This document shows, piece after piece, positions 2,451-56,165 of a DNA stretch of 64,000 nt. The stretch comes from an uncultured Pelagibacteraceae bacterium (GTDB lineage: Bacteria > Pseudomonadota > Alphaproteobacteria > Pelagibacterales > Pelagibacteraceae). A program made the position numbers and the translations under genes. Below the pieces are notes generated by a model. That model searched no databases. It was not told the origin of the DNA and was given only the letters and a program-made list of their open reading frames with translations. The first letter of the stretch is position 1. Each line of letters starts with the position of its first letter. Where the stretch lies: contig CACHBR010000002.1 in assembly GCA_902578115.1 (NCBI GenBank), forward strand, positions 59,863 through 123,862, given 5' to 3'.

Positions 2451-3209
2451 ATAAACAGTAGCTAGAATAATTGATCCAAGTATTAATCTATATCCAACAA
2501 TGACATTAAAGCTAAAATTCTTTAAGTAGATTAATAAGTATTTGATTGTTAAATAAGAGAAAATGAATGACAAACCTATCGTCATAATTGAGTTGGTATT
2601 TACAATTAAGTCTCCTTCATTAAACATTTTATAAACACCGTATATCGAGCTACCTGCAAGCGCTGGAATTGAAAGTAAAAATGAAATCTTGGCGGCATCT
2701 TCTCTATTAAATTTTAAAAATCTAGCTCCAGTCATTATTATTCCAGATCTGCTTACACCAGGTATAAGAGCTAATACTTGAAAAAACCCAATTAAAATGG
2801 CCTTTTTAAACGTAAATTTATCTTTAATGCTATTTTCAAGGCTTAATTTATCTGAAATAAAAAGTACAATACCAAAAATTATAGTCATCCAACCTATAAG
2901 CTCTAAAGACCTAAATGTATCAATCAAGTTATACTTTAAAATTAAAAATCCAAATCCAAACAATGGAATTGATGCCAAAATTATTTTATAAATTAATTTT
3001 TTATTCTTTCCAAAATTAAAAATATCCTCTTTAAAGAAAAATATTACCGCAAGTAAAGAACCCATGTGAGCATAAACATTTATTAATAATTCATTTTGAA
3101 TACCAAAATATTTTGATATTAAATTTAGGTGAGCCGAAGAGCTAACTGGAAGAAATTCAGTAATACCCTGTGCTATAGATAGGATTAAAATTTGAATAAA
3201 GTTTTCCAT
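2445..3209 (-). CDS. uppP: Undecaprenyl-diphosphate phosphatase
   Basis: 254 aa polytopic protein. It carries the BacA/UppP motifs EFLPVSSSAHL and PGVSRSG. Confidence 0.93.
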   Translation of the reverse strand: MENFIQILILSIAQGITEFLPVSSSAHLNLISKYFGIQNELLINVYAHMGSLLAVIFFFKEDIFNFGKNKKLIYKIILASIPLFGFGFLILKYNLIDTFRSLELIGWMTIIFGIVLFISDKLSLENSIKDKFTFKKAILIGFFQVLALIPGVSRSGIIMTGARFLKFNREDAAKISFLLSIPALAGSSIYGVYKMFNEGDLIVNTNSIMTIGLSFIFSYLTIKYLLIYLKNFSFNVIVGYRLILGSIILATVYL

Positions 3210-3378
3210 TTATTGTGTATTTCCTTATATTTAATTCAACTAGAGAGTTCATTAAAATTACGCATAGCTGATATGCACATATAAAAAACAAGTAAAATAT
3301 GGGTTTTTTGAATTAAAGGTCAATATAACTTACCTAAATAGTCTTTAATTTCTTTAATTTTTATTCTAAAAAACCGTC

Positions 3379-4818
3379 ATGTCAGAAAAAATGTTAAAGT
3401 TTGTAAAAATAGGTCAGCAATCACCACCTAAAAGATCTGCTGATAACAGGAAGAATGACTTTAAAGAAGTCTACGATGAATTTATTAGTAACAAAGCCAA
3501 AGAGCAATCAAGTAGATGCTCGCAATGTGGTGTTCCATTCTGCCAGGTTCATTGTCCTCTTCAAAACAACATACCAGATTGGTTAAAGCTTACCGCGGAG
3601 GGAAGATTAGAAGATGCTTATGAATTATCACAAAGTACAAATAATATGCCTGAGGTTTGTGGAAGAATTTGCCCTCAAGATAGATTATGTGAAGGAAATT
3701 GTGTAATTGAACAGTCTGGACATGGAACAGTAACAATAGGATCGGTTGAGAAATACATTACAGAAACAGCTTGGGAAAAAGGATGGGTCAAACCAATTAA
3801 ATTAAAAAAAGAGAAAAATCAATCAATAGGAATTATCGGAGCTGGTCCAGCAGGATTAGCATGTGCTGAACAGCTTAGAAAATCTGGGTTCAAAATCACA
3901 ATTTACGATCGATATGACAGACCTGGTGGATTATTAATATATGGAATTCCAAACTTTAAACTTGAAAAATTTGTAGTTGAACGAAGAACTAAACTTTTAA
4001 AAGATTCAGGGATTAAATTTAAACATAACTTCGAGGTTGGTAGAGACGCAACTTTAGAAGAATTAAAATCAAAACATGATGCAATACTAATTGCTACCGG
4101 CGTATATAAAGCGAGAGATGTTGATATAGAGGGAAAAAATCTAAAAAATATTTTTCCAGCGATGGATTTTCTTACTGCTTCAAATCGAAAAGGTTTAGGA
4201 GATAAAGTTAAATTATTTGATGATGGTACTTTAAATGCAGAAAATAAAAATATTGTTGTTATCGGCGGTGGTGATACCGCGATGGATTGTGTGAGAACCG
4301 CTATAAGACAAAAAGCTAAATCTGTGAAATGTTTATACAGAAGAGATAGGGAGAATATGCCTGGCTCAGCAAGAGAAGTAAGTAACGCCATAGAGGAAGG
4401 AATTGATTTTCTTTGGCTATCTAATCCAAACAGATTTATCGGTAAAGATAATGTGGAAGCTGTTGAAGTAACAAAAATGGAATTAGGTGAAGCAGACTCC
4501 TCAGGTAGAAGAAAACCTGTTCCAATTAAAAATTCTGAATATAAAGTTGATGCTGACATTGTAATTAAAGCACTTGGTTTCGATCCTGAAGATGTACCTA
4601 AGCTTTTCGGCTCTGAAGATTTATCAGTTTCTAAATGGGGAACTATAAAAATCGACCTTAAAACTATGCAAACTAATTTGCCAGGAGTCTTTGCGGCTGG
4701 AGATATAGTAAGAGGGGCTTCGCTAGTCGTTTGGGCAATTAGAGATGGTAGAGATGCAGCTGCAGAGATTGAAAAATATCTAAATTCACAAGTAATAAAA
4801 AAAACGGAAGCAGCATGA
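3379..4818 (+). CDS. gltD: Glutamate synthase (NADPH) small subunit
   Basis: 479 aa. Cys clusters are present (CSQCGVPFCQVHCP; CGRICPQDRLCEGNC), plus two dinucleotide folds (GAGPAGLA, GGGDTAMD). It overlaps gltB by ATGA at 4815. Confidence 0.93.
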   Translation: MSEKMLKFVKIGQQSPPKRSADNRKNDFKEVYDEFISNKAKEQSSRCSQCGVPFCQVHCPLQNNIPDWLKLTAEGRLEDAYELSQSTNNMPEVCGRICPQDRLCEGNCVIEQSGHGTVTIGSVEKYITETAWEKGWVKPIKLKKEKNQSIGIIGAGPAGLACAEQLRKSGFKITIYDRYDRPGGLLIYGIPNFKLEKFVVERRTKLLKDSGIKFKHNFEVGRDATLEELKSKHDAILIATGVYKARDVDIEGKNLKNIFPAMDFLTASNRKGLGDKVKLFDDGTLNAENKNIVVIGGGDTAMDCVRTAIRQKAKSVKCLYRRDRENMPGSAREVSNAIEEGIDFLWLSNPNRFIGKDNVEAVEVTKMELGEADSSGRRKPVPIKNSEYKVDADIVIKALGFDPEDVPKLFGSEDLSVSKWGTIKIDLKTMQTNLPGVFAAGDIVRGASLVVWAIRDGRDAAAEIEKYLNSQVIKKTEAA

Positions 4819-7800
4819 AGTTATATAAAAAGAACAGAGAAATATTACAAAAAAACTTTTCTTATTCTACAAACATGGAGCATGATGCATGCGGAGTAGG
4901 TCTAATAGCTTCTCTTGATGGTAAAAAAAGTCGGAAAGTTGTTGAGTATGGTATTGAGGCTTTGAAAGCAGTATGGCACCGGGGAGCAGTTGATGCCGAT
5001 GGGAAATCCGGAGATGGAGCAGGTATTAGCTTTGAAATTCCGAAAGATTTTTTTCAAGAAAAAATAGAGGATACAGGTCACAAACATACAGAGGGTGATA
5101 TTTGTGTTGGAATGATTTTTTTACCAAGAACAGACTATTCATCTCAAGAACGTAGCAAAGCATTAGTAGAAAGAAATTTATTAGAAAACGATTTTTATAT
5201 ATATGGTTGGAGACAAGTTCCAGTAAATTCAGATGTTTTAGGAAAAACAGCTGATTCAAACCGTCCAGAAATTACTCAAATTATTTTTAAGTCCAATAAG
5301 AAAAAAGAAAGAAATGAATTAGAAAGATCACTTTATGTAGTTAGAAAAAAAATTCTTAAACAGACTAGAAATGAGCAAATTAACGATTTTTATATATGTT
5401 CCTTGAGTTCAAGATCGATTGTTTATAAAGGCATGTTTTTGGCTGAAGCCTTGTCGGATTTTTATCCAGATTTAAAGGACAAAAGATTTATTTCTAGATT
5501 TTCGATTTTCCACCAAAGATTTTCAACAAATACATTTCCAAGTTGGAAATTAGCTCAACCCTTCAGATCATTGGCTCACAATGGAGAAATTAATACCTTA
5601 AAAGGAAATATAAATTGGATGAAAATTCATGAACAGGATATGTCGAGTGAACTCTTCAAAAATGTAGAGGATTTAAAACCTGTTATAACTCCCGGCAATT
5701 CAGACTCTGCAGCTTTAGACAATGTTTTTGAATTACTTATTCATTCTGGAAAATCAGTTCCACTTATCAAATTAATGATGATGCCAGATGCGTGGTCTAA
5801 GAGAAGTAAAATTTTACCAAAAGCGCATCAGCAACTCTTTGATGTTTTAAACAGCACCATCGAACCATGGGATGGACCAGCTGCAATTTGTGCAACTGAC
5901 AGTAAATGGGCAATAGCAGCAACAGACAGAAACGGATTAAGACCTTTAAGATATTCGATTACGTCGGACAATTTATTATTTGCAGGTTCTGAAACAGGAA
6001 TGGTTTCTATTCCAGAAGAGAATATTATAGAAAAAGGAAGGCTAGGACCTGGTCAACTAATTGCTGTTGATCTAAAAGCAGGTAAAATTTTTAAGGATAA
6101 GGATATAAAAGATTATTTAGCTAAAGATTTTACAAAGTTTCATAAGCAAGTTGTGCACTTTGATAAAAAACTTGGTACAAAAAATGAGTTCCCAAATTTT
6201 CAAAACGAGGAACTAAGACAAAGACAATTTATTTCTGGATACAGCATAGAGGATTTAGAGCTTATTCTTCATCCAATGGCAGAAGAAGCAAAAGAAGCTA
6301 CTGGTTCAATGGGAGACGATACACCTGTTGCTGTATTATCAAACCATTATAGACCAATTACGCATTATTTTAGACAGAACTTCAGCCAGGTAACAAATCC
6401 ACCAATAGACTCTTTAAGAGAAAACAAAGTTATGAGCCTTAAAACAAGATTTGGAAATTTAGGCAACATTTTAGATTTTGACAATTTTACAAAAGAAAAT
6501 ATTTACGTTTTAGACAGCCCTATTTTAACAAACTCAGAATTTAAAAAATTTAAAAGCCATTTTTCCACTAAAATAAAAATTATCGATTGCACATTTGATG
6601 TAAGTAAATCTCTAAAAGATAGGTTGGAAGAAATAAGATCAGAAGCTGAAATTTCAGTTAGAGAGGGTATAAATCATCTTATACTTTCAGATCAAAAAAT
6701 ATCCGAAAAAAAAGCGATTGTACCAATGGTTTTGGCGGTAGGAGCCGTTCATTCAAATTTAGTCAAACATGGACTACGAGGTTATTCATCAATAAATGTT
6801 CAAACCGCAGAAGCTATGGATACACATTCATTTGCTGTTCTGCTTGGAGTAGGAGCAACAACTATAAATCCTTACCTTGCTATAGATAGTATTTACCAAA
6901 GATATACAAAGAAATTATTTGGAAAGTTAGACTTTAATGCTTGTGTAGATAGATTTAAAAAATCCATTAATAATGGTTTGTTAAAAATCATGTCAAAAAT
7001 GGGAATTTCTGTATTAAGCTCCTACAGAGGTGGATGTAATTTCGAAGCCGTGGGCTTAAGCAGAGCTATTGTTGCAGATTATTTTCCAGGAATGTTTTCT
7101 AGAATTTCAGGTATTGGGGTATCGGGCATAGAAAATAAAATAAAAGAACTTCACAAAAAAGCTTATCAAAAAAATGTTACAGTTCTGCCAATTGGTGGTT
7201 TATATAAATATCGGAAATCTGGTGAAGACCATCAATTACAAGGAAGTCTTATACATCTTTTACAACATGCTGTAGGAGTTAAGTCTTACGAACAATATAA
7301 AAAATATTCAGCAGGTATTCATAATTTAACACCAATAAATTTAAGAGATCTCCTAGAATTCAAGAAGAAAAATAATCCAGTAAATATTGATGAGGTAGAA
7401 CCGGTCACAGAGATAATGAAAAGATTTGGAAGTGGAAGCATGTCTCATGGCGCATTATCAGAAGAAGCACACGAAACTTTAGCAATTGGAATGAATAGAA
7501 TTAAGGGGGCTTCCTGCAGCGGTGAAGGTGGTGAGGACTCAAGAAGATTTAAGGTACTTGAGAATGGTGATTCAGCAAATTCTAAAGTTAAACAAGTTGC
7601 ATCTGCAAGATTTGGTGTGACAATAGAATATTTAAATAATTGTAGCGAAATCGAAATCAAAATAGCACAGGGTGCTAAACCAGGAGAAGGAGGACAGCTT
7701 CCAGGATTTAAAGTCACAAAAGATATTGCAAGATTAAGACACTCGACAAAAGGTGTAACATTAATTTCTCCTCCACCTCATCATGATATTTATTCTATAG

Positions 7801-17814: not shown

Positions 17815-19622
17815 TGTCAGATATAAAGAGAGTAAGAAATTTTGCGATTATCGCACATATTGATCATGGAAAGTCAACAATAGCTGACAGGATGATACAA
17901 ATTTGTGGTGGCTTATCAAAAAGAGAAATGAAAGAGCAAGTTTTAGACTCAATGGACATTGAGAGAGAAAGGGGTATTACAATTAAAGCACAAACAGTGA
18001 AACTTAATTATAAATCGAAAAATGGAAATGATTATCTCTTAAATATTATTGATACCCCAGGCCATGTTGACTTTAGTTATGAAGTAAGTAGATCGCTACT
18101 TGCTTGTGAAGGTTCAGTTCTGATTGTTGATAGTTCACAAGGTGTTGAGGCTCAAACTCTTGCAAATGTATATCAAGCACTTGACACAAATCATCATATA
18201 ATTCCTGTGCTTAACAAGATAGATCTTCCAGCATCTGATGTTGATAAAGTTAAAAAACAAATAGAAGATGTAATAGGTATAGAAACTTCTAAAGCTATCT
18301 CTTGTTCGGGAAAAACTGGAGAAGGTGTTGAAGAAATTTTAGAGACGATTGTTTCAGATTTACCTTCCCCTCAAGGCGATCAAAAGTCTAAGCTCAAATC
18401 TTTATTAGTAGATAGCTGGTATGATAGTTATTTAGGTGTTGTAATTCTTGTGCGAGTTATTGATGGAAGTATCACAAAAGGAATGAAGGTAAAACTAATG
18501 TCTACAAACCAAGAATACGAAATTGAAAAAGTTGGTGTTTTTACACCAAAGGCCAAAGATATAGATGAATTAAATTCAGGAGAAATTGGATTTATAATAA
18601 CTGGTATTAAAAGTTTATCAGAAACAAAAGTAGGAGATACAATTTGTGATGCCAAAGATCCAATTGAAAAACCGTTACCAGGTTTTAAACCCAGCAAGCC
18701 TGTTGTTTTTTGTGGCCTTTTCCCAGTTGATAGCTCAGAGTACCAAAGATTAAAAGATGGACTTGGTAAACTAAAACTTAATGACTCTAGTTTTTCTTAT
18801 GAACCAGAGTCCTCAAGTGCACTTGGTCTTGGTTTTAGATGTGGATTTCTAGGATTGCTACACTTAGAAATTATAACTCAAAGATTAACAAGAGAATTTG
18901 ATATCAATTTAATCACAACAACTCCTGGAGTTGTATACAAATTAAATAAAATTAATGGTGATGTTATAGATCTTCAAAATCCAACCATGATGCCAGATCC
19001 AACTCAAATAAAATTTATTGAGGAGCCTTGGATAAAAGCCACAATTATTACCCCAGATGAATATTTGGGATCCATAATAAAAATTTGCCAAGATAAAAGA
19101 GGTGTTCAAAAAGATTTATCTTATTCAGGAAACAGAGCAGTTCTAGTTTACGAACTACCCCTTAATGAAGTTGTTTTTGATTTTTATGATAGACTGAAAT
19201 CAATTACTAGCGGATATGCCAGTTTCGATTATGAAATTACTGGTTACAAAGAAGGTAATTTAGTAAAATTAGGAATCTTGGTAAACAATGAGCCAGTTGA
19301 TGCCCTTTCAATGATTATTCATAAAGAATTTGCACAAAATCAAGGAAGATTAGTATGTGAAAAATTAAAAGATCTTATACCTAGACACAATTTTATGATT
19401 CCCATCCAGGCTGCAATTGGAGGAAAAATTATTGCAAGGGAAAGTATAAAAGGTTTTAAAAAAGACGTTTTAACTAAAATTCATGGTGGAGGGGCAAGGG
19501 ATAGGAAGAGAAAATTATTAGAAAAACAAAAAAAGGGTAAAGCACGTTCAAAACAATTTGGTAGAGTTGAGATACCACAAGAAGCTTTTATTGGGGTTTT
19601 AAAAATCAACAAAGAAACCTAA
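17814..19622 (+). CDS. lepA: Elongation factor 4
   Basis: 602 aa. G-motifs are [17 protein letters not shown] and NKIDL. The LepA-specific C-terminal domain is present. Confidence 0.96.
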
Positions 19623-19712
19623 GGAGAGATGGCCGAGTGGTTGAAGGCGCACGCTTGGAAAGTGTGTAAACGGGAAACCGTTTCGTGGGTTCGAATCCCA
19701 CTCTCTCCGCCA
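19623..19712 (+). tRNA. tRNA-Ser (anticodon GGA), long variable arm, CCA encoded
   Basis: It starts at the base after the lepA stop. Acceptor GGAGAGA/TCTCTCC. Anticodon arm CACGC-TTGGAAA-GTGTG. Long variable arm TAAACGGGAAACCGTTTC. T-arm GTGGG-TTCGAAT-CCCAC. Confidence 0.92.
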
Positions 19713-19716
19713 TTTT
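19650..19716 (+). repeat. Direct repeat copy 1 (att-like): 3-prime 63 nt of tRNA-Ser plus TTTT
   Basis: By my base-by-base comparison it is identical over 67 nt to 20452-20518 (cacgcttggaaagtgtgtaaacgggaaaccgtttcgtgggttcgaatcccactctctccgccatttt). Confidence 0.9.
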
Positions 19717-20451
19717 TTGAAACTTCCCACAACTAAAAATATACGTTAAGGTTATCTCTGCCGTCACTGTGCCGTCGGCAGTTATGAAAAAAAAAATTAA
19801 AGAAATCGAAGCACTACAAGATGATATAAGAAACCTCAAAAAAACTTTTGATAATTATGACAATGAAGTAAACAAACTTCAAAAAATAACAAGTAATTCA
19901 ATTAAAAGATCTAATCTCGAGCTCATCGTATTTGCCACTAAGCAGTTGAAAGATGCAATTGAATTTGGTTTTCAAAAAAATGTTGCAAGTCGAAGTCTTA
20001 ATATTACCTTAAACCATCATTGGCAAGCCAAAGAGGTTGGAGCTCATATTGGATGGCACAAAGAAAAATTTACTCACTCATTACTTGCGAAAAGAGAATT
20101 TAAAAAACTTGGTAAAAAATCTAAATTAATCATGGAGCATGTCGTTCCAATGAATATAATCATAGATATGTTGCTTACCCTTGAACCATTAAACGAGACA
20201 AATGTTAAGAAAATTTTGTCTAAATTTTGGAAAGTAATAAGGATAACTAAAAGTGAAGATTTAAAATTGAACAAATTAGGCTTAAATAGGAAAATGCCAA
20301 AAGACTGGGATGGAAAAGACCCCTTTGCTAGATACAAAAAAGCAAAAATAGAATTTTGACTCCGCTCTGCCGTCGCCAACTCTAAATTTATACTTTTTGA
20401 ATAAAAATTCTTTAATGATACCAACAAAAATTTAAGCCTTAGTTCAAAGCA
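19717..20451. mobile_element. Putative remnant or minimal integrated element (735 bp, one ORF, no recombinase) between tRNA-Ser-derived direct repeats
   Basis: It is bracketed by the 67-bp perfect repeats. The layout matches an attL (intact tRNA) and attR (displaced 3-prime tRNA fragment) arrangement. No integrase is seen anywhere in the window. Confidence 0.5.
19784..20359 (+). CDS. Hypothetical protein (191 aa from the ATG): N-terminal coiled-coil-like region and a C-terminal EHVVP...N motif reminiscent of His-Me finger (HNH/DUF1524-like) nucleases
   Basis: It is the only long ORF in the insert. The track starts it at GTG 19769, but I prefer ATG 19784 (MKKKIKEIEALQDD...). The motifs are LIMEHVVPMN and, 30 aa later, IRITKSEDLKLNKLGLN. 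The functional call is pattern-based only. Confidence 0.6.
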   Translation: MKKKIKEIEALQDDIRNLKKTFDNYDNEVNKLQKITSNSIKRSNLELIVFATKQLKDAIEFGFQKNVASRSLNITLNHHWQAKEVGAHIGWHKEKFTHSLLAKREFKKLGKKSKLIMEHVVPMNIIIDMLLTLEPLNETNVKKILSKFWKVIRITKSEDLKLNKLGLNRKMPKDWDGKDPFARYKKAKIEF

Positions 20452-20518
20452 CACGCTTGGAAAGTGTGTAAACGGGAAACCGTTTCGTGGGTTCGAATCC
20501 CACTCTCTCCGCCATTTT
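20452..20518 (+). repeat. Direct repeat copy 2: orphan 3-prime fragment of tRNA-Ser (not a functional tRNA)
   Basis: It is identical to 19650-19716 but lacks the acceptor 5-prime strand and the D-arm. It ends 10 nt from the stop of the convergent methyltransferase gene. Confidence 0.9.
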
Positions 20519-20528
20519 AAATAATTCG

Positions 20529-21446
20529 TTACTTTGATATCAATAGTCGATTGATCGGCATTGAAAAACGACCTTGTCTTTCAGGATCTCTACTCTGTTT
20601 TGATACCGCCAGAAGATTAGATAACTCAGAAAGTAATATCCCACGAGTCTCTGGTGGTAAGATGAATGAAGCATAAAAAAATCCTGCGGTAGTTTCGGCC
20701 ACTTCAGTAACGGGTCCTTCCATGGATACCACGCTAGTTTTGATATTAATATTAGCATCTGGAAAAGCCTCACTTAAAAGATTTTTTGAGCTATCTGTAC
20801 TACGTATTCTTGGATCACCTAAATCAATCTCGCCATACTTTGGTAGCTTAGCTTGTACGTATTCATAGATTAAATTGTATACATCATTATATCCTGGCGC
20901 TGCATCCATAGGTCCATTGACCAATGCTGCAAACTTTCCACCTGTGGACAGTACACGACGGATTTCATTTAACACTGGAGTAATTGGGTTCATTAATGTC
21001 AAAGCCCAATGGCACAGCACAACGTCTACTGAGTTATCATCAATAGCCGTCAAATTTTGTGCTTTTAACTCAAAAAGATCAACAGAACCTTTTGGTAGAC
21101 GCGCCTTAGCCAGTTCTAATTCTTCAGGACTTATATCCGCTCCTTTTAATTTGAAGTTTTTATTACGATCGTATAAGATTTTTAGTAATGGTCCTGATCC
21201 ACAAGCAAGATCCAGCACACGGATACCATCAACATTAGGCACAATTTCAGCTAACCATTCGTAACTATTGCGTCCAGCCTTGTCGCGGCAAGAACTCGCA
21301 CACTTTTCTGTGAAACCCGCATTATTTCGATGAACAGTTCTTAGATGGGCGAGTAGCGCTTTACTATCTGGCTGTTGATTGTTAGCAAGACTTTCAGTCC
21401 AGGTCGAGTTAAGAACCGCCTGATTATTTTTATTTTTATTTGTCAT
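20529..21446 (-). CDS. Class I SAM-dependent methyltransferase, unknown substrate
   Basis: 305 aa. Motif I is RVLDLACGSGP, motif II-like is VDVVLCHWAL and a post-I acidic residue is present (GADIS). It overlaps the upstream PhyH gene by 11 nt. Confidence 0.85.
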   Translation of the reverse strand: MTNKNKNNQAVLNSTWTESLANNQQPDSKALLAHLRTVHRNNAGFTEKCASSCRDKAGRNSYEWLAEIVPNVDGIRVLDLACGSGPLLKILYDRNKNFKLKGADISPEELELAKARLPKGSVDLFELKAQNLTAIDDNSVDVVLCHWALTLMNPITPVLNEIRRVLSTGGKFAALVNGPMDAAPGYNDVYNLIYEYVQAKLPKYGEIDLGDPRIRSTDSSKNLLSEAFPDANINIKTSVVSMEGPVTEVAETTAGFFYASFILPPETRGILLSELSNLLAVSKQSRDPERQGRFSMPINRLLISK

Positions 21447-22431
21447 CTACTGGCCAGCAAATTGGATTTAGTGGACTAGCTGCTACGTCGCCAGGATTTA
21501 CATTTGGCATGAATTTTTGCCAGTCACCAGAAACCATTGTAGGATTATTTATTACTCGTGCCCCATCCCTAAAATAAGTATTTGCTAAAGCTACTCGGCT
21601 TCGATTAGTTCGGTTTCGTGACGCAGTATGAAAATTTAAATTGTGATGAAAGCTAACTTCACCTAACTCAAATGGTGTTTCATTCACAGTCACACCATTT
21701 TTTCTAAAAACTTCTGATACTCCACGGTCATAACCAGTACCGGTTTTTTCAAAAGTTACAGCATTAACTAGATTATGCACGTCAAGTGGATAAGCGAAAG
21801 AAAGTGGCCCCATTTCAATCGGAGTTGGTTGTGCTGGTACCCAAGCAGTAACTACATCATTGGTATCTAATGGAAAATGATGGTCATCAAAATGCCATGG
21901 TGTTCTTCCACATCCAGCTTGTTTTGCTAAAACGTTATCATGGTAAAGTCTAACCGAAGGAACACCAAGTAGATCCGCTGAAATTTGTCCAAGACGTGGT
22001 GATAATACGTATGCACGTAAAAGTTTGTTTTTAGGCCAGATCATTTCAAGGCTAAGAAACCGGTCATGCGCCTGTGTGTCAGGATCAACATTAAATTCTT
22101 TTTTTAATAGGCTGATCAACTCAGCTCTAAGTTTAAGTATAACACCAGGTGAGAAAACTTTTTTTAGTTTAATAAAACCGTTTTTTCTAAAGAAATTAAT
22201 TTGTTCATTTTTCAATGGGTAAACCTCGGTCAGTTCAAAAACAACCTCATCATCAGTTGGGATTGCAACATTCGGTAAAGGTTCGGCGTTTATTATTGGA
22301 TCCTTTTTTTTGTCATTATCTGCAAGACCAACATACCAGTCCCACCAGGCTTGATTATCTTTATCCCATGGCTTACTAATATCCGCAGCATCAGATATTT
22401 TTGAATTTATCTTGTCTCGAGATGTTTTCAT
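21436..22431 (-). CDS. Fe(II)/2-oxoglutarate dioxygenase of the phytanoyl-CoA dioxygenase (PhyH) family
   Basis: 331 aa. The HxD facial-triad region is TPWHFDDHHFP, and the distal His/Arg region is FHHNLNFHTASRNRTNRSR. This arrangement is PhyH-like. Confidence 0.8.
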   Translation of the reverse strand: MKTSRDKINSKISDAADISKPWDKDNQAWWDWYVGLADNDKKKDPIINAEPLPNVAIPTDDEVVFELTEVYPLKNEQINFFRKNGFIKLKKVFSPGVILKLRAELISLLKKEFNVDPDTQAHDRFLSLEMIWPKNKLLRAYVLSPRLGQISADLLGVPSVRLYHDNVLAKQAGCGRTPWHFDDHHFPLDTNDVVTAWVPAQPTPIEMGPLSFAYPLDVHNLVNAVTFEKTGTGYDRGVSEVFRKNGVTVNETPFELGEVSFHHNLNFHTASRNRTNRSRVALANTYFRDGARVINNPTMVSGDWQKFMPNVNPGDVAASPLNPICWPVDDK

Positions 22432-22544
22432 ATAAATAATCTATACTGTTTTTTTAAATTAGTAAGTACACTTTTTGACCATTTTTAAGAATCTTACTCT
22501 CCGTCATAACTTTTTGATATAGTAAACGAATCGAAAGGAGAACA

Positions 22545-22606: not shown

Positions 22607-23386
22607 TTAACTTTTTACTTTTAATATAATCTGATTTGAAATCGACTTGATCTCAATATTTGGATCAGCATGAATAATGGGCATGATTCCTCCAATAGGA
22701 TTTTCATCAATTTTTTCATAATAGTCCCATATAAAATCATCTAGTATAATAATTCCATTATTATTGATAAACTTTATGCTGTTTATCAAATCTTTCTTAA
22801 CATCAAGGTAATGATGTGAACCGTCAATATAAATTAAATCAAATTTTTTTTTATTTTTTTTAAAAAACTCATTTGAAGTTATTCGATTTATACTTATACG
22901 ATCAGAGAAATTAAAAGAATTTTTTTTAAATCTCTCAAATACGTTTTCCATGTTCGAGTCTTTAACAACAGAATTAACTTCGTTATATTCAATATAGGGA
23001 TCAACTACTGTTATTTTGAAATTTTTAAAGTTTTCACAAATATGAATTGTAGATCTTCCCTCATACGTACCAATTTCAAGGTACTCGATTTTTTCTTTAT
23101 TAAAAAATGTTTGCTTTAATACTGTATCCCAAATCGGTATATTTGGAGAAAACCAGTCGATGTCTGTAAAATTATATTTTTTTTGATAATAATTTTTTTG
23201 ATTTTCAAGAGATGACTTTTGTTTTTTTTTAATTATTTCTGATTTTAAAAGATACATTATAAATTGTAATTTATTAATCTTAACTTTCGAAACTTTTAAA
23301 TATTCAGAAATAAAATTAAATTTTCGGTAAGCACCTTTAATTACACCAATTCTTAATAGATAAATTAAATTTTTTATTAAAAACAT
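22607..23386 (-). CDS. Class I SAM-dependent methyltransferase (Methyltransf_24 / TylF-like O-methyltransferase type)
   Basis: 259 aa. It contains YLEIGTYEGRST (motif I-like), ITVVDP, FDLIYIDGSHHY and GIIILDDF. Confidence 0.7.
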   Translation of the reverse strand: MFLIKNLIYLLRIGVIKGAYRKFNFISEYLKVSKVKINKLQFIMYLLKSEIIKKKQKSSLENQKNYYQKKYNFTDIDWFSPNIPIWDTVLKQTFFNKEKIEYLEIGTYEGRSTIHICENFKNFKITVVDPYIEYNEVNSVVKDSNMENVFERFKKNSFNFSDRISINRITSNEFFKKNKKKFDLIYIDGSHHYLDVKKDLINSIKFINNNGIIILDDFIWDYYEKIDENPIGGIMPIIHADPNIEIKSISNQIILKVKS

Positions 23387-50969: not shown

Positions 50970-51045
50970 TGGTGCCCATAGCAAGAATCGAACTTACGAC
51001 CTCTTCCTTACCATGGAAGTGCTCTACCAGCTGAGCTATATGGGC
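50970..51045 (-). tRNA. tRNA-Thr (anticodon GGT), CCA encoded
   Basis: The reverse complement is GCCCATATAGCTCAGCTGGTAGAGCACTTCCATGGTAAGGAAGAGGTCGTAAGTTCGATTCTTGCTATGGGCACCA. It folds as a canonical cloverleaf with anticodon loop ATGGTAA. Confidence 0.92.
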
Positions 51046-52650
51046 CTTTTAAAGTATGAACAATCTTTGATTAATAATTTTTTTACATCCGCAATTGTCT
51101 TATCTTCTTCAAAACAATCTTTGCTAACATAGCGATAAAGCTCATCAACCTTTACTGGAGAAATAATATAAATTACCGAGATTTTTTTTCTTGTAATTAG
51201 ATCAATTAAAAAATTTTTATATTCATCAAAATACTTATTATTTTGAATCGGGTATGCCGCACCATTTGGAATGTACCATCGACTTGGAGAATGAAGATTT
51301 TTATTAATTATAAGGGAAAGAAAAGAATAGTTTGACATAACCATAGCTTCATTATTTTCAGCGTTTAATACACCTATAATTTCTCTTAAGAATTTAATTT
51401 CTTCTTCGGGAGAGTTAGGGAATATTGGTGTTATCCATTTTAAACCAGAAAGTTTTTTGTCAATTTTTTTTGCATTTACTGATAAATCAAAATTTATTTT
51501 AGACATTTCATGAAATCTTCTTTCATCATTAAATCTTAAATGATATTTTGAAGTAACAAACAAACAAAATAACAATAAAAAAAATGAAAAGTATTTTTTA
51601 TACCTTATTTCATAATTGTAGATAAATATTGATGAAAAAGCACACAAAACAGGAATTAGAAAAAAAATAAATTCCTGATTTCTGGTATTTATCTGATGAA
51701 TAACTAAACTAAGAATTAATAAAAGAAAAGATAAGAAAAAAAAGAAATTCTCATTAAATATATTTTTTTTAGATTTAATTACATCAAGCAATGTAACTAA
51801 TAATAAAGGTATAAAAGAAATATAGATAAACTTGTAATCAAAAATTATATCACCGGACAAAAAATTAAGTTCGGCAATTCTATTTTTTCCGATCGAAGAA
51901 GGAAAAAGTATGTACTGATCAAAAAAATTCTCAAGTTTAATATTAGTAAAATCAAAAAATAATAGAATAATTATTATGAAAGATAAGGAACTAAAAGTTA
52001 AATACAATAGCCAATTAAATCTTTTTTTAATAAAAATATACAAGATAAGTATTAATGAGACTGAAAAAAAAACATAGACCGAAGGTGCTGATTTGGTCAA
52101 AAAAGCAAGTCCTAAAACAACTGGTAAAAAAATTAGGAATTTTTTTTTATCAGTTTTTAAAGCCATTATTAAACAATAAACAGCCAGTAAACATAATAAA
52201 GATGAATGGTGATCTACATATAAAGTCCCACTAGTTGTATACCCAAGAATCGCAAAACAAAAAGAATAAAAAAAACATTGATAAATATTTAAATTAAAAT
52301 TTTTTAAAATATAAAAAGTTGCAATCGTTAATAAGCAATTAATTAGAGATGCATGCAAAATATAAACTTGAAAATTTTGTCCAAATGCTTTGAAAAAAAA
52401 CAGCTTGCACATAATCGATTAATAATCCCGAAACCAACCAATAATCTTGAAAAGGAATATCTCCATTAATAATTCTAAAAGCTATGTCAAAATGAGCAAA
52501 ACTTTCTATTGGGAAAACGCCTCTATTGGCATAGTATTGGTTTATAATTATAGAAAATACTAAAATAATTAATACAAGAATTTTTTCGTTGAGTTGTAAA
52601 TTTTTTTTAAGCATTTTTGGTAGAAGTAATTTAATTTTTAAAATATACAC
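51036..52650 (-). pseudogene. Polytopic GT-C-like membrane glycosyltransferase (ArnT/PMT-like topology) split into two overlapping ORFs by a frameshift at a T8 run
   Basis: ORFs 52339-52650 (103 aa) and 51036-52412 (458 aa) overlap by 74 nt in different frames. The run of 8 A on the plus strand (52393-52400) is T8 on the coding strand. T7 would fuse them as ...DYVQAVFFKAFGQNFQVYILH..., about 537 aa with roughly 12 or more TM helices. Confidence 0.55.
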
Positions 52651-52659
52651 TTAATTATT

Positions 52660-53976
52660 ATGAAATCCCAATCAAATTTTTCTTTAAATTGGAGTGGTAA
52701 TACTAAAGCGACCCCAAGGATAATTTATCCAAAAAATCTGGAAGAATTAAAAAAAATTATGTCAGAAAAAAATTTTATAATTGCAGGAAATCAGAGATCA
52801 TTTGGAGATAATTCTATTAATACAAACTTGATTGTATCCATGAAAAATTTTAAACAAATTTTAAATTTTGATAAGTCAAAAGGGATCATAGAAGCTCAAG
52901 GTGGCGTATTACTTAAAGATGTACTAGGTTTAATTGTAGAAGCAGGATGGTTTGTACCTGTTACACCTGGTAGCAAATATGTTTCAATTGGTGGAATGGT
53001 TGCTAACAATGTTCACGGCAAAAACATTTCAAATAACCAAATAAAGCACCATATACTTGAGCTTAAAATATTAAATGAGAATAATGAAATTGTAACTTGT
53101 ACTCCAACACAAAAAAAAAATTATTTTGAAAGTACGATAGGCGGATTTGGTTTAACTGGGTGTATTTTATCAGCAAAGTTTAGATTGAAAAAAATCAACT
53201 CAATATTTATGAACCAGGAAATTTTAGAATTCACAAGTTATAATAGTTTTTTTTCACTATTAGCAAAATCAAATTTATATGAATATAACGTAAATTGGAT
53301 AGAAAGTTTTGGTAATGGCTCAATTAAAGGACTATGTTATTTTGGAAAACATGAAAATAATAATAACTCAGATCCTTTGCAAAAATTTAATTTTAAGGAA
53401 AAGGAAATTGATTTTTTTAATTATTTTATTTTGAAAATTTTTACTCAAAATTATTACTTAATAAAATTAACTAAATTTATATTCAGAAAGTTTAAAAAAA
53501 TATTTTATAAAAAAGTCTCAGGTTTTGATGAATTTTTTTACCCCCAAGATTACTTCATAAATTGGAATAAAATTTATGGAAAAAAAGGATTCTTTCAAGC
53601 TCAGTTTTTGGTAAAAGAAAATAATTTTAAAGATATAATGAATAAAATTGCTAAATTTTTTAAAGATGAAAAAATTTTTAGTACTTTTATTATAATTAAA
53701 AAATTTGATGAAAAAGGTAAATATTTGAATTTTTATGGACAAGGTTTTTCAATCTCAATGGATATTCCGATAAACTCAAACTTTGAAAAAACTAAGAATT
53801 TTTTAAATAGTATATTTCAAGAATATGATATAAAAGTTAATTTCTCAAAAGACTCTATTGCAAACAAAGATGTAATAAAAAATAAAGAAGAGTATTCAGA
53901 ATTTGTTAAAGAGTTGAATCTTATTAGTCCAGAAAGGAAATTTAATTCTATTTTCTCTAAAAGACTAGAAATGTAA
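52660..53976 (+). CDS. FAD-dependent oxidoreductase, DprE1-like (polyprenyl-phospho-sugar 2-prime oxidase family)
   Basis: 438 aa. From memory it is collinear with mycobacterial DprE1: NWSGNT.., QRSFGDNS (RSYGDNA in DprE1) and WFVPVTPGSKYVSIGGMVANNVHGKN ([27 protein letters not shown] in DprE1). Confidence 0.8.
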   Translation: MKSQSNFSLNWSGNTKATPRIIYPKNLEELKKIMSEKNFIIAGNQRSFGDNSINTNLIVSMKNFKQILNFDKSKGIIEAQGGVLLKDVLGLIVEAGWFVPVTPGSKYVSIGGMVANNVHGKNISNNQIKHHILELKILNENNEIVTCTPTQKKNYFESTIGGFGLTGCILSAKFRLKKINSIFMNQEILEFTSYNSFFSLLAKSNLYEYNVNWIESFGNGSIKGLCYFGKHENNNNSDPLQKFNFKEKEIDFFNYFILKIFTQNYYLIKLTKFIFRKFKKIFYKKVSGFDEFFYPQDYFINWNKIYGKKGFFQAQFLVKENNFKDIMNKIAKFFKDEKIFSTFIIIKKFDEKGKYLNFYGQGFSISMDIPINSNFEKTKNFLNSIFQEYDIKVNFSKDSIANKDVIKNKEEYSEFVKELNLISPERKFNSIFSKRLEM

Positions 53977-53977
53977 A

Positions 53978-54703
53978 ATGCCAAAAAAAATTTTGATATA
54001 TGGTGGAAGTTCTCTAATTTCAAAGGAGTTAATAAGTATTTATTCTAGGGAAGATTATAATTTTATTATTTTCTGTAGAAAAAAAGAGTCTGTGCTAAGT
54101 GATCTATCAAACCTAAAACTGGATAATAATAAGTTTGAAATTTTTGAGACAGATTTAATTGATCTTCAAAAAAACCTAGAACTAATATCAAAACTAGATG
54201 ACAACATTGATGGAGTTATCTGGATCTCTGGTTATACAGGGGATCCTGTAAAAGAAATCAACGATACAGAATTAGCATTAAATAATATTAAAATAAATTT
54301 TCTAAACCCAGTTTTAATTATAAGTAAGTTATTACCAAAAATTATCAATAATGGAGAAGGTTTTTTGGCCGTGATGTGCTCTGTTGCAGGGTTAAGGGGT
54401 AGAGCTAAAAATATTTTTTATGGCAGCTCAAAATCAGGTTTAATAACTTTTTTATCTGGTTTAAGACAAAAATTTCATAATAAGTTAAATATTGTAACAA
54501 TTATACCTGGCTATATGTCCACAAATTCTTTTAAGGAAAGTGCTCCAAATTTTTTAATTACTTCACCAAAAAAAGCTGCAACTATTATAAGTAAAGCAAT
54601 CAAGACAAAAAAAGAAATTATATATATAAACTCTTATTGGAGAATAATAATGTTTTTTGTCAAAAATATTCCAGAAAAAATTTTTAAAAAATTAAAATTT
54701 TAA
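53978..54703 (+). CDS. Short-chain dehydrogenase/reductase, DprE2-like
   Basis: 241 aa. It has an N-terminal Rossmann GGSSLIS and an SDR YxxxK (FYGSSKSG). The C-terminal tail WRIIMFFVKNIPEKIFKKLKF matches the DprE2 tail pattern ([21 protein letters not shown]) from memory. It starts 1 nt after the DprE1-like stop. Confidence 0.78.
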   Translation: MPKKILIYGGSSLISKELISIYSREDYNFIIFCRKKESVLSDLSNLKLDNNKFEIFETDLIDLQKNLELISKLDDNIDGVIWISGYTGDPVKEINDTELALNNIKINFLNPVLIISKLLPKIINNGEGFLAVMCSVAGLRGRAKNIFYGSSKSGLITFLSGLRQKFHNKLNIVTIIPGYMSTNSFKESAPNFLITSPKKAATIISKAIKTKKEIIYINSYWRIIMFFVKNIPEKIFKKLKF

Positions 54704-54707
54704 AATA

Positions 54708-55895
54708 TTAATTTAAATCTTTAAAAATTTTATAATATGTGAATTCGAGTTTTGTATCTTTAGAAAAATATTCTTCATGATGTAAAAAGGTACAATAGGT
54801 TAAAAGTAGTAAAAAAAATAATACTTTTTTATTCATAAAAAAATCATTAAATTTTTTTGCATTTTTACTTATTTCATATTTAATTATTTTTTTATTTTGT
54901 AAAAAAAATAATAAAAATACAGTCAAATGAATATGTATTGAAAACCAACGTGACCAATCTTCTGCCACATGGAATAGTGGAAAGCTAAAAACAATTATTA
55001 AGAAATAAATTAAAATATAAAAAATTTTATTTTTTATTTTTGCAAAATTAAAAAGTAATATTAATGGAATAAAACTATAAATAATATACGTCAAATAACC
55101 TATCCAGCTAGTATAACTCGCACTTAAATAAAAGAATAACATCGAATTATTTGCCTGATCTTTTAACAAATTATGTTTCAGAGCAAAGATTGGTCCACGT
55201 TCAAGACATCCAATCGGAGTATAATTTAATAAACTTTTACATATTTCATAAACACTTTTCTCTGAACCCTTAAAATAAAATAAAATTACCATCGATATTA
55301 TTGAAATAAAAATTAATACCAAAAAATGAGGAATAAAATTTTTATATTCTTCTTTTTTTTTGACCAATAAAATAGGAATAAGAATATAAGGTAAATAAAA
55401 AAATATACCCTCATGAATAAATAAAAGAATCGGAAAAATAAAAATGAATTTCCATAAGCTATTTTTGTTGAAATGTTTGGAAGAAATACTTATCAGGTAC
55501 CACAGATAAAATAAAAATAGTAATATTTCTTTTCTAATACCAACACCATTAATAATTATGAAGAAAAAATATAAAAGTGGTGAGAATAATACTAAAATAG
55601 TAAAAAAATTAAATTTAATATTTTTTAATAAAATATAATTCAATCTATAAAACATTAGGCAGATACCTGACAAAATTACAAAATAAGCTAATTGTAAATT
55701 ACCGTTAAATATTTTTGATAGCTGAAAAATAATTTCACCACTTAAGCCTCTTCTTATAAATCCTGACTGATAATTTATTAACCATTCTCCGTACTCATAA
55801 GTGTCTAGATTCACTGCATTGTTGAATACCTTTAAAAGTGAAAATGTGGATAGAAAAACGATGAAAAATAATAAAAAATAATTTTTTTTAACCAT
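54708..55895 (-). CDS. Polytopic membrane protein, possible glycan polymerase/GT-C-type transferase (EpsG/Wzy-like topology)
   Basis: 395 aa with about 10-11 hydrophobic helices. No soluble domain and no diagnostic motif are recognised. The functional guess comes from context only. Confidence 0.45.
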   Translation of the reverse strand: MVKKNYFLLFFIVFLSTFSLLKVFNNAVNLDTYEYGEWLINYQSGFIRRGLSGEIIFQLSKIFNGNLQLAYFVILSGICLMFYRLNYILLKNIKFNFFTILVLFSPLLYFFFIIINGVGIRKEILLFLFYLWYLISISSKHFNKNSLWKFIFIFPILLFIHEGIFFYLPYILIPILLVKKKEEYKNFIPHFLVLIFISIISMVILFYFKGSEKSVYEICKSLLNYTPIGCLERGPIFALKHNLLKDQANNSMLFFYLSASYTSWIGYLTYIIYSFIPLILLFNFAKIKNKIFYILIYFLIIVFSFPLFHVAEDWSRWFSIHIHLTVFLLFFLQNKKIIKYEISKNAKKFNDFFMNKKVLFFLLLLTYCTFLHHEEYFSKDTKLEFTYYKIFKDLN

Positions 55896-55973
55896 AATTT
55901 AGTTACTTTTATAGTAGAAGCTTGCATAATTGAACTCTACAAAGTAAAACAATATAAAAACTATGGTGCAAAA

Positions 55974-56165
55974 ATGGGAATTCATTACACTTATAAATCA
56001 ATTAGAGGCGAAAAGGCCATGAAAAAAGAGGCTAAAAGAAAAGCCCGTTTAGAACAAAGAAGAGCTAAAAAGGGATACAAGCCAATTCAAAGCGAAAGTG
56101 AAAAAATGCACGATATTGAAAAAACTATTACTTTAGAAGATTTAACAAATCCCAATAAAAATTAA
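55974..56165 (+). CDS. Small basic hypothetical protein
   Basis: 63 aa with a lysine/arginine-rich helix (KKEAKRKARLEQRRAKKGYKP). No homology is recognised. Confidence 0.45.
   Translation: MGIHYTYKSIRGEKAMKKEAKRKARLEQRRAKKGYKPIQSESEKMHDIEKTITLEDLTNPNKN

Follow-up and report, generated by a model that had tools for sequence, protein, structure and literature searches.

A conserved attP-like module in small integrase-less cassettes at the tRNA-Ser(GGA) gene of SAR11 bacteria suggests recombination in trans

Background

No bacterial group in the ocean is more abundant than SAR11, and its pangenome is open. Its genomes are almost devoid of recognisable mobile-element genes, which raises the question of how they acquire new genes. 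In the locus analysed here, from a genome of the Pelagibacteraceae (SAR11), a single gene lies between two copies of the 3′ part of a tRNA gene. The window is the whole stretch of DNA that was analysed, 64,000 nucleotides (64 kb) in length, and all positions refer to it.

The tRNA-Ser(GGA) gene and its repeat

The lepA gene ends at position 19622, 1 nt ahead of an intact tRNA-Ser(GGA) gene, the 3′ part of which recurs downstream. The features of this region are:

19623-19712, + strand: tRNA-Ser(GGA), intact, on the attL side (ARAGORN; Rfam RF00005, 59 bits)
19650-19716, + strand: repeat copy 1, from the anticodon stem to CCA plus TTTT (repeat search)
19784-20359, + strand: cargo ORF of 191 aa (ORF191), of an uncharacterised family (ORF call)
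20452-20518, + strand: repeat copy 2, an orphan tRNA-Ser 3′ part (tRNA positions 28-90) plus TTTT, on the attR side (repeat search)

The repeat search delimited a direct repeat of 77 nt (19640-19716 and 20442-20518; 96% identity), the last 67 nt of which (19650-19716 and 20452-20518) are 100% identical. The perfect block begins where the anticodon stem does, at tRNA position 28 (tRNA positions 28-90 correspond to 19650-19712), and 7 of the 10 nt immediately 5′ of it match (GTTGAAGGCG vs. GTTCAAAGCA). Between the two copies lie 735 bp (19717-20451) with one ORF. Thus, ARAGORN, Rfam and the repeat search bear out the original prediction of a perfect 67-bp repeat that brackets a 735-bp single-ORF insert. 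A perfect repeat of 67 nt cannot be a matter of chance; it is the sole partial tRNA repeat within the 64-kb window, where no 14-mer from the other three tRNAs recurs, and the only match in the Rfam scan of the locus was the tRNA itself. The order tRNA, cassette, fragment was found, with both junctions spanned, in a single-cell genome (L145) and in four metagenome contigs from different projects (L024, L146, L148 and L149). The arrangement is not an assembly artefact.

Insertion polymorphism and recent spread

The DNA that follows position 20518 is the same DNA that lies directly 3′ of tRNA-Ser in empty sites. By our judgement, approximately 15 of the 21 species-level Pelagibacteraceae genomes have such an empty site, as do L155 and L156, and the flanks of one occupied locus (L157) are 98.4% identical to those of an empty one (L019). 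Alleles with other cargo and/or tandem arrays were found in L011, L014, L023, L151 and L157; L011 contains three tRNA halves, with two cassettes in tandem. These alleles demonstrate insertion polymorphism at this site. Empty-site alleles and alleles carrying other cargo were among the checks proposed with the original prediction, and, together with the tandem arrays, they support the original reading of the repeat as the footprint of integration into the 3′ end of a tRNA gene.

The ORF191 cassette is present on 12 other contigs, where it is 99.3-100% identical to the copy in the window. In those contigs that include flanking genes, identity to the window is only 84% for lepA, 84-95% for the methyltransferase gene and 85-88% for the PhyH gene that lie beyond the cassette, and therefore the cassette has spread horizontally in recent time. 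The high identity stops at the attR fragment wherever a contig continues into host DNA. Its copies are thus almost the same among hosts with a divergence of 5-16% in the neighbouring genes, as if captured in the middle of their spread, and comparison of these sequences indicates that the cassette is a real mobile unit.

In some loci, the orphan fragment and the local tRNA are not identical: the variable arms are different in L014 and L023, and one base is different in L145. Hence, the fragment is not a local duplication. Contigs of 837 bp were considered as possible circular forms of the cassette and rejected: they end inside the repeat with equal overhangs, and were accordingly read as truncations of the assembly graph. 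Neither a circular junction nor a product of excision was seen.

A conserved module with several arm types

Across the cassette family, the order of elements is the same: a P′ arm of ~70 nt that follows the tRNA end, 1-3 small ORFs, a P arm of ~100 nt, and the tRNA 3′ part. The P arm opens with TGACTCCG throughout the family, whereas the cargo ORFs are unrelated between cassettes. In the window, the arms comprise:

19713-19783, + strand: P′ arm, 71 nt, ending just ahead of the cargo ATG and conserved across 7 unrelated cargos
19728-19733, + strand: CACAAC box in P′, part of the conserved arm
19741-19750, + strand: ATACGTTAAG box in P′, part of the conserved arm
19759-19765 and 19770-19776, + strand: two copies of TGCCGTC in P′, 11 nt apart (motif search)
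20357-20451, + strand: P arm, 95 nt, opening with TGACTCCG and conserved across cassettes
20368-20374, + strand: single copy of TGCCGTC in the P arm (motif search)

The stop codon of the cargo is the TGA inside TGACTCCG, and the final ~10 nt of the P arm (20442-20451) repeat tRNA positions 18-27 in diverged form. TGCCGTC occurs three times in the 64 kb, every time in the arms, and TGACTCCG occurs once. Seven unrelated cargos have their arms and cargo boundaries in common (...GCCGTCGGnAG, cargo, TGACTCCG...). In tandem arrays (L011 and L151), a P arm, a tRNA part and a P′ arm stand between one cargo and the next, and small co-oriented tandem cassettes with unrelated cargo are present in L011, L151 and L002. 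Neither this arm module nor the cassette family figured in the original prediction.

At least four arm types share one layout: type 1, type 2 (L002), type 3 (L022) and type 4 (L158). Written as a pattern, the module reads TGACTCCG-N3-6-motif ... tRNA-Ser 28-90 ... CACAAC-N7-10-ACGTTAAG ... motif-N4-motif. In types 1, 2 and 3, the motif co-varies in both arms (TGCCGTC, CGTATTGCTGTC and GGCGCCAGTAG, respectively); in type 4, from which P′ alone was recovered, it is TGGTCAC. The 11-nt-phased motif pair is present in types 1, 3 and 4, and arm lengths are alike wherever an arm was recovered, which was the case for both arms of types 1-3 and for P′ of type 4. The cassettes are 0.5-1.5 kb in size and contain no recombinase or replication gene; every cargo ORF is co-oriented with the tRNA and begins directly after P′. 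The block identical to the tRNA spans 63-74 nt, from the anticodon stem or the D loop to the 3′ end. Besides ORF191, the cargo consists of small orphans, a trypsin-like peptidase and a DUF805 protein, with no phage-like gene in any cassette.

This architecture bears on the decayed-remnant option, one of three offered in the original prediction. In this view, a prophage or island has lost its integrase and other genes by deletion, and the insert is all that is left. Temperate pelagiphages do integrate in many SAR11 tRNA genes (10.1101/410191, PMC8477408), and decayed tRNA fragments are present deeper in the locus. Against this stand the identical boundaries of seven unrelated cargos, the 99.3-100% identity of the cassette among hosts with flanks that differ by 5-16%, the occurrence of cassettes in tandem and the lack of phage-like genes in any of them. 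These observations contradict the remnant explanation, which we consider highly improbable.

Search for a recombinase

As originally noted, the insert encodes no recombinase, and no recombinase or integrase was found in the rest of the 64-kb window or in the related loci examined either. In exact scans, no IMG/VR viral contig matched 62 nt or 35 nt of the tRNA end or the patterns of the two arms; a 28-nt scan was unspecific, all 120 of its matches being full tRNA-Ser genes from other taxa. A BLASTN search against 50,697 phage records (INPHARED) returned unrelated phage tRNA-Ser genes only. Thus, no helper with an integrase and matching arms or core was detected in IMG/VR, INPHARED or the loci examined.

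The outcome of these searches is compatible with a route that dispenses with a dedicated recombinase, whereby a circle formed in a donor by recombination between the 67-nt repeats enters the recipient tRNA-Ser by a single RecA-dependent crossover and the arms are kept because they drive or terminate cargo expression. Recombinase cores are rarely as long as this block of identity (63-74 nt), and 63-67 nt would suffice for RecA to insert a circle on rare occasions; the arms could serve expression instead of recombination. The cargo ORFs are all co-oriented with the tRNA and start right at the P′ end. Canonical mobile elements are reported to be missing from SAR11 islands, with only one integrase over 61 islands (PMC11796062). 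However, a simple scan found no sigma-70-like promoter on the + strand of P′, and a role as promoter or terminator fails to explain why type-specific direct repeats of 7-12 nt co-vary in both arms in three types. Arm lengths held at ~100 and ~70 nt across types are likewise left unexplained, and the high-identity block stops at the tRNA-identical core wherever a contig enters host DNA. On balance, homologous recombination seems to us an unlikely source of the cassettes.

The lack of an integrase in cis or nearby would also be expected if a host recombinase, XerC/XerD or another core enzyme, captured the cassettes in an integron-like manner, with the tRNA gene as platform and the arms as accessory sequences. 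Such accessory sequences have parallels in the cer and psi sites of plasmids and in the pdif modules of Acinetobacter. The cassettes, with 1-3 co-oriented genes each and stacked, would suit this scheme, and there is a loose likeness between the P′ box ATACGTTAAG and the XerD half-site TATGTTAAA (7 of 9 positions, read by eye), although it is weak given AT-rich DNA. A dif-like 11-6-11 site is not evident in the tRNA-identical core, and the existence of four arm types, each with its own motif, points to more than one cognate protein and away from a single host enzyme; we regard capture by a host recombinase as a decidedly poor prospect. Neither xerC nor xerD is located in the 64-kb window.

Proposed mechanism

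We consider it probable that the insert is an integrase-less mobile cassette of the SAR11 tRNA-Ser(GGA) gene, with an attP-like module that is acted upon by a tyrosine-type recombinase in trans. Among the three options originally put forward, minimal cargo mobilised in trans appears to fit best. The circular cassette would consist of the cargo and a ~230-bp module resembling attP (P arm of ~100 nt, tRNA positions 28-90, P′ arm of ~70 nt). A tyrosine-type recombinase supplied from elsewhere, by a helper phage or element or possibly by the host, would recombine the tRNA-identical core with the chromosomal tRNA, and the TGCCGTC motifs (two in P′ at 11-nt phase, one in P) are putative arm-type or accessory binding sites. 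Integration would keep a working tRNA at attL and leave a tRNA 3′ part at attR, and repeated events would stack cassettes in tandem, the newest beside the tRNA.

The distribution of tRNA alleles provides a hint as to the crossover site. The tRNA part beside P′ is invariably the allele typical of the arm type (for type 1, allele 'a' in 7 of 7 cargos), whereas several alleles (a, a′, c and d) occur after the P arm. A fixed allele on the P′ side and a variable one on the P side fit a crossover at positions 28-40, towards the anticodon, in which case the 3′ part would come from the element; the number of heteroallelic loci behind this argument is small, and allele 'a' is a frequent one. No chimeric T stems were seen among the loci compared, and no close empty-site relative from which the host allele could be read was found for L014 or L145.

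More broadly, the data raise the possibility, which we put forward tentatively, of a SAR11 cassette-capture system on a tRNA gene, analogous to integrons, in which integrase-less cassettes with at least four specificity types of module, each with matched arm motifs, are served by helper or host recombinases and which would constitute a general, hitherto undescribed route of gene flow into genomes otherwise devoid of mobile-element machinery. A cassette with a conserved attachment module of ~230 bp hints at how stripped-down genomes exchange genes, and the locus supplies a searchable unit, made up of the cargo and a 230-bp module whose boxes are defined. If the arms are binding sites of a recombinase, they offer a handle to find the enzyme and to count cassette traffic in metagenomes, and possibly an integration tool for SAR11, which is genetically hard to manipulate. 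Otherwise, the locus still illustrates cleanly how an additive island is organised at a tRNA gene.

Comparison with known systems

Additive flexible genomic islands have been described in streamlined marine bacteria, namely in the SAR11 gMED pangenome (PMC11796062) and as fGI-2 of Methylophilaceae (PMC10872708). According to both papers, these islands are, like the present locus, adjacent to a tRNA gene and consist of variable cassettes split by partial tRNA repeats, with cargo of mostly unknown function and no canonical mobile-element genes; here too, the content varies among strains and partial tRNA repeats lie inside. SAR11 cassettes flanked by partial tRNAs have been reported already, whereas conserved arms forming a module, arm motifs and types, and near-identical cassettes across diverged hosts are not mentioned in the text searched. 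In Methylophilaceae, the last 20 bp of tRNA-Lys are repeated, compared to 63-74 nt here, and inserts range from 330 bp to 42 kb (PMC10872708).

In Prochlorococcus, tycheposons (Hackl et al., bioRxiv 10.1101/2020.12.28.424599) likewise use tRNA genes as integration sites and have partial tRNAs on their flanks. They form tandem stacks in which new arrivals push older elements inward, and the islands contain degenerate remnants and extra partial tRNAs. The SAR11 cassettes share the tRNA site, the partial tRNA flanks, the tandem stacking and the degenerate remnants. However, tycheposons are defined by an integrase, usually have replication genes and measure 4-200 kb (size as given in PMC10872708), whereas the cassettes are 0.5-1.5 kb and have neither kind of gene. 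Pelagiphages have the same host group, an attB inside a tRNA gene and a core identical in element and tRNA (10.1101/410191; PMC8477408). Their cores are 11-46 bp (10.1101/410191), and the targets named are tRNA-Cys, Leu, Arg, Asn and Met, tRNA-Ser(GGA) not being among them (10.1101/410191; PMC8477408); the cassette core and arms were not found in any phage sequence searched (IMG/VR, INPHARED).

Elements that target tRNA genes with their own tyrosine integrase likewise have a direct repeat of the tRNA 3′ end with an intact tRNA at one end, and presence/absence polymorphism (empty attB alleles); the cassette differs from them in having no integrase. In layout, the arms appear to match a complex attP of the lambda type, with short direct repeats in both arms, two in P′ at 11-nt phase and one in P. 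CIMEs and mobilizable islands are bounded by att sites, lack an integrase, are moved by the integrase of a related ICE or phage in trans, and accrete in tandem at tRNA or att sites. Such elements have mostly arisen by deletion from a parent that is known, whereas the SAR11 cassettes look like a designed minimal unit, with a complete attP module and cargo.

Integron cassettes are, like those described here, small, mostly single-ORF, co-oriented, promoter-poor and stacked at one platform, and carry their own recombination site while depending on a recombinase encoded elsewhere, as the SAR11 cassettes presumably do. The SAR11 locus differs in having no intI, attI or Pc and in its platform, a tRNA gene downstream of lepA. 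Furthermore, attC of integrons folds as a single-strand hairpin. An attC-like hairpin was rejected for the ~230-bp module, which includes the tRNA part: the reconstructed 229-nt junction gave z = −1.6 on both strands, its stems being the tRNA arms only, and the arms alone gave z = +0.7 and −0.7.

The cargo and older events at the site

ORF191 consists of an N-terminal long helix and a conserved domain of ~150 aa (EHxVP...ITKxED...MPxDWDGxDxxARY). Its dN/dS is 0.05 compared to L022, and by this codon-level measure the gene is under purifying selection. No family match was obtained in Pfam, NCBIfam, PHROG or PADLOC, and a PDB profile search yielded no match under E = 0.47. The AF2 model has a pLDDT of 91.8; Foldseek searches with it gave nothing significant, the top matches being T5 endonuclease in the PDB (E = 2.1) and uncharacterised phage proteins in BFVD (E = 7 × 10−3). 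An HNH-like nuclease, prompted by the EHxVP motif, was considered and found no supporting evidence.

Two features downstream of the cassette may reflect older use of the site:

20529-22431, − strand: methyltransferase (305 aa) and PhyH-family dioxygenase (331 aa) (ORF and family calls)
22489-22506, + strand: candidate decayed tRNA-Ser 3′ remnant (GAATCTTACTCTCCGTCA), just past the start of the PhyH gene (score 16, with a shuffle maximum of 22, and thus not significant alone)

The methyltransferase-PhyH pair has a GC content of ~40%, compared to ~30% for the genome, and looks like an older, now fixed cassette of the same site, suggesting that the tRNA-Ser site has long been in use. At the position of the candidate remnant, tRNA-Ser stretches of 87 nt (L010), 34 nt (L008), 23 nt (L005) and 20 nt (L020) are present in other loci.

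The tRNA-Ser site and its repeat

The window is AT-rich (GC ~30%), and the gene order at the site is pheS-pheT-lepA-tRNA-Ser(GGA), followed by the insert and then by a methyltransferase and a PhyH-family dioxygenase (minus strand). The original prediction of a 67-bp perfect direct repeat around a 735-bp, one-ORF insert proved exact by repeat finder, ARAGORN and Rfam. The repeat finder, applied to the window, returned a direct repeat of 96% identity (19640-19716 and 20442-20518), whose perfect part starts where the anticodon stem starts, at tRNA position 28, and extends to CCA plus TTTT; 7 of the 10 bases preceding this block also match.

Features of the site in the window
19623-19712, intact tRNA-Ser(GGA) at the attL side (ARAGORN; Rfam 59 bits)
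19650-19716 and 20452-20518, the perfect repeat copies, the second being the orphan tRNA 3' part at the attR side
19784-20359, ORF191, a 191-aa ORF and the only one in the 735 bp between the copies

Partial copies of the remaining three window tRNAs were sought in the window and none was found. One of these, tRNA-Thr (50970-51045, minus strand), adjoins a membrane/sugar-related gene cluster (50970-56000) with an EpsG-like protein (tool match), an unassigned membrane protein, a candidate FAD-linked oxidase and, judging from sequence, a candidate short-chain dehydrogenase; no partial tRNA-Thr repeat is present within the window. The longest ORF call there (51036-52412) overlaps tRNA-Thr by 10 nt, and its true start is probably further in.

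Occupied and empty sites in relatives

When one genome per species was scanned for exact matches to 58 nt of the tRNA 3' part, 21 loci came up, all from single-cell or metagenome-assembled genomes of Pelagibacteraceae (SAR11). Approximately 15 of these are empty, as called from the downstream sequence and gene positions: right after the tRNA comes the sequence that the window has beyond 20518, the end of the methyltransferase gene. Locus L014 carries a single insert, L011 has three tRNA parts delimiting two tandem inserts (1515 and 1325 bp), and two inserts with different arms occur in L002. Scanning metagenomes with a pattern from the P' arm (the ~70 nt after the tRNA end) added L023, with a different cargo, and L024, with the cargo of the window, and methyltransferase look-ups added two empty sites (L155, L156) and an occupied one (L157). 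The methyltransferase-PhyH flanks of L157 and the empty locus L019 are 98.4% identical, and in both the tRNA-identical block is followed by the same sequence, so that the two form a nearly isogenic occupied/empty pair. The integration reading of the insert is thus supported by empty and occupied alleles, by alleles with other cargos (e.g. L011, L014, L023, L157) and by the near-identity of the cassette in diverged hosts.

At the same tRNA end, L015 (oriented, 3048-4950) and L147 (887-2790, after an ORF191 cassette) contain a ~1.9-kb insert encoding a ~600-aa repeat-rich protein that looks secreted; its left end is different (TAAATAAGACCCAAAATG...), and on the right there is only a 7-8-nt tRNA-end relic (ATCCACCA).

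Recent movement

The exact 191-aa protein is recorded on 13 contigs, 10 of which were read, one of them a single-cell contig of 167 kb (L145) and the others metagenome contigs of several projects. In those ten and in L024, the P' arm, cargo and P arm (the ~100 nt before the attR tRNA part) show 99.3-100% DNA identity to the window, whereas the flanks, where included in the contigs, are only 84% (lepA), 84-95% (methyltransferase) and 85-88% (PhyH) identical. The near-identity ends at the attR fragment wherever a contig continues into host DNA, and the hosts of this cassette have different tRNA 5' halves and different genes separating lepA from the tRNA. This pattern rules out vertical inheritance and is evidence against both an assembly artefact and the suggestion that the insert is the last remnant of a decayed island. 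We consider it highly probable that an additive tRNA island holds the insert as a discrete mobile cassette.

The window has lepA and tRNA-Ser directly next to each other (19622/19623). Several relatives have 1-10 kb of sugar-modification genes (glycosyltransferases, NTP-transferase, epimerases, carbamoyltransferase) in between (L145 7138-9837; L024, oriented, 1-1346; L011 393-2764; L156 11198-20918; L157 4960-8823), so upstream of the tRNA there is another variable slot, one of a different type.

Cassette design and arm types

A single design is common to all type-1 inserts (window, L011 A and B, L014, L023, L024, L145-L154, the second unit of L151, and L157).

Type-1 cassette
P' arm, ~70 nt after the tRNA end: TTTTTnnAAnCTTTTCACAACTAAnAATATACGTTAAGnTTATnTCTGCCGTCnCTGTGCCGTCGGnAG
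Cargo, 1-3 small ORFs, same strand as the tRNA
P arm, ~100 nt: begins TGACTCCG, then CTCTGCCGTCGC, then an AT-rich stretch

The TGA of TGACTCCG is often the cargo stop codon. A diverged copy of tRNA positions 18-27 closes the P arm and is followed by the tRNA part 28-90. The cargos are mutually unrelated: the 191-aa protein, two sets of three orphan ORFs, a lipoprotein-looking 102-aa protein, a secreted trypsin-like peptidase, a DUF805/SHOCT membrane protein and one ORF that was partly read. The arms hold all three TGCCGTC copies of the 64 kb, each on the plus strand: a pair at 19759 and 19770, spaced by 11 nt, and one copy at 20368. TGACTCCG occurs once, at 20357. At L016 (2519-2580), the P' arm is kept only to ACGTTAAGATT and then joined to an ORF with a purM-looking C-terminal part, which is either a rearrangement endpoint within the arm or a chimeric single-cell assembly.

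In further cassettes, the layout is constant and the motifs differ.

Motifs of the four arm types
Type 1 (window and others): P', TGCCGTC twice, 11 nt apart; P, TGACTCCG and CTCTGCCGTCGC
Type 2 (L002a): P', ...GACGTATTGCTGTC...; P, TGACTCCGTATTGCTGTCACC
Type 3 (L022): P', GGCGTCACATA GGCGCCAGTAG ahead of ATG; P, TGACTCCGTACTGGCGCCAGTAGAC
Type 4 (L158): P', TGGTCACACAC TGGTCACAAAT ahead of ATG; P arm not recovered

The cargo of L022 is an ortholog of the window cargo and that of L158 a homolog (68% identical). The arms of types 1-3 align colinearly. Their P arms all measure ~100 nt; the P' arm of types 1 and 3 has ~70 nt, and that of type 2 is longer, with ~96 nt ahead of the ATG. Two boxes are conserved, TGACTCCG and one resembling CACAAC, which reads TACAAC in type 2. 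In complex attP sites of the lambda type, the binding sites of the cognate protein lie at fixed distances from the core. Given that the motif switches jointly in both arms and the arm lengths stay alike, the arms show, by analogy with complex attP, the pattern expected of putative cognate-protein binding sites. An integron attC-like hairpin was ruled out: the single-strand fold of the reconstructed circular junction (229 nt) is not significant beyond the tRNA arms (z = −1.6), unlike attC. No sigma-70-like promoter was found on the P' plus strand. The 11-nt phasing is seen in the P' arm of types 1, 3 and 4 and in the P arm of the second L002 cassette (oriented 6664-6690), which has two TGGTCG repeats (TGGTCGCCATA TGGTCGTCGCT).

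Inferred crossover position and search for a recombinase

At some loci, the orphan fragment deviates from the local tRNA: L014 and L023 have a fragment with another variable arm, compensated internally, and the L145 fragment departs by a single base, a variant that is the native allele at the empty site L156. Among the alleles of the tRNA 3' part (a, a', b, c, d), the copy beside the P' arm is always the one typical of the arm type, that is, 'a' in type 1 with all seven cargos, 'b' in type 2, type 3 and the second L002 cassette, and a further allele in type 4; the copy after the type-1 P arm is a, a', c or d, and the order in L002 is b, b, a. None of the tRNA copies has a chimeric T stem, which places the exchange outside positions 41-79. 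With few informative loci and allele 'a' common, the simplest reading of these alleles is a crossover in the anticodon stem-loop, whereby the tRNA 3' part would come from the element and that of the host would be displaced to attR; a crossover near the tRNA 3' end is a possible alternative. An identity block starting at the anticodon stem fits a class of tRNA integration sites (Williams 2002, as cited in PMC8477408).

The window ORFs can be recognised as core genes; no integrase domain was detected in the ten least certain of them, no integrase in the gene tables of L145 and L155-L157, and no element with this core or these arms in scans of viral contigs and phage records. The best explanation, which we hold with moderate confidence, is an integrase-less mobile cassette with an attP-like module that is mobilised in trans, and it incorporates the earlier proposal of a minimal cargo mobilised in trans, by a recombinase without a match in the window, the loci read or the phage and viral scans. 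As for the mechanism, we lean slightly towards site-specific recombination using the arms; it is possible that a host enzyme moves the cassettes, as is RecA-dependent insertion of a circle.

This kind of feature is already known. Published accounts describe SAR11 islands in which partial tRNAs flank the cassettes and state that canonical mobile elements are absent there (PMC11796062), present an additive island of Methylophilaceae in which the final 20 bp of tRNA-Lys are repeated (PMC10872708), and report pelagiphage integration into tRNA-Cys, Leu, Arg, Asn and Met (10.1101/410191; PMC8477408). Prochlorococcus tycheposons also stack at tRNA genes but carry integrases (10.1101/2020.12.28.424599). 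In the searchable literature, we found no description of the conserved ~230-bp module, of matched arm motifs in several types, of the precise cargo boundaries or of near-identical cassettes in diverged hosts.

The cargo protein ORF191

A word-indexed database returned only two close clusters for ORF191, and exhaustive HMMER 540 relatives with a common region at residues 42-190, i.e. a widespread ~150-aa domain with no curated family match. In the family alignment (A1), H119, P122, P172, W175, R183 and Y184 are invariant and E158 nearly so. Fusions to DUF429 or a polynucleotide-kinase-like ATPase occur in a few relatives and hint at a role in nucleic-acid biology. The AlphaFold model is confident (pLDDT 91.8) and had no significant structural match. 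Between the window and L022, dS = 0.90 and dN = 0.046 (dN/dS = 0.05), which marks ORF191 as a working gene. A 47%-identical relative is located on a short contig without tRNA sequence, downstream of a short partial ORF read as a putative fabI-like C-terminus; if this is right, the family occurs beyond cassettes too.

Older layers at the site

The methyltransferase-PhyH pair (window 20529-22506, including a candidate remnant) has ~40% GC compared to ~30% for the genome, and tRNA-Ser-like copies lie just beyond the PhyH start.

tRNA-Ser-like copies beyond PhyH
L010 4428-4514, 87 nt, nearly full length, anticodon changed to GTA
L008 2620-2653, 34 nt, remnant
L005 4012-4034, 23 nt, remnant
L020 3061-3080, 20 nt, remnant
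Window 22489-22506, weak candidate remnant

These decaying copies, together with the raised GC, suggest that the pair is probably an old cassette, now fixed at the same site. The stretch from the remnant to the NlpC/P60 gene contains further variable genes. The window has a Methyltransf_24 gene there (22607-23386, ~24% GC); most relatives lack it or have other genes in its place.
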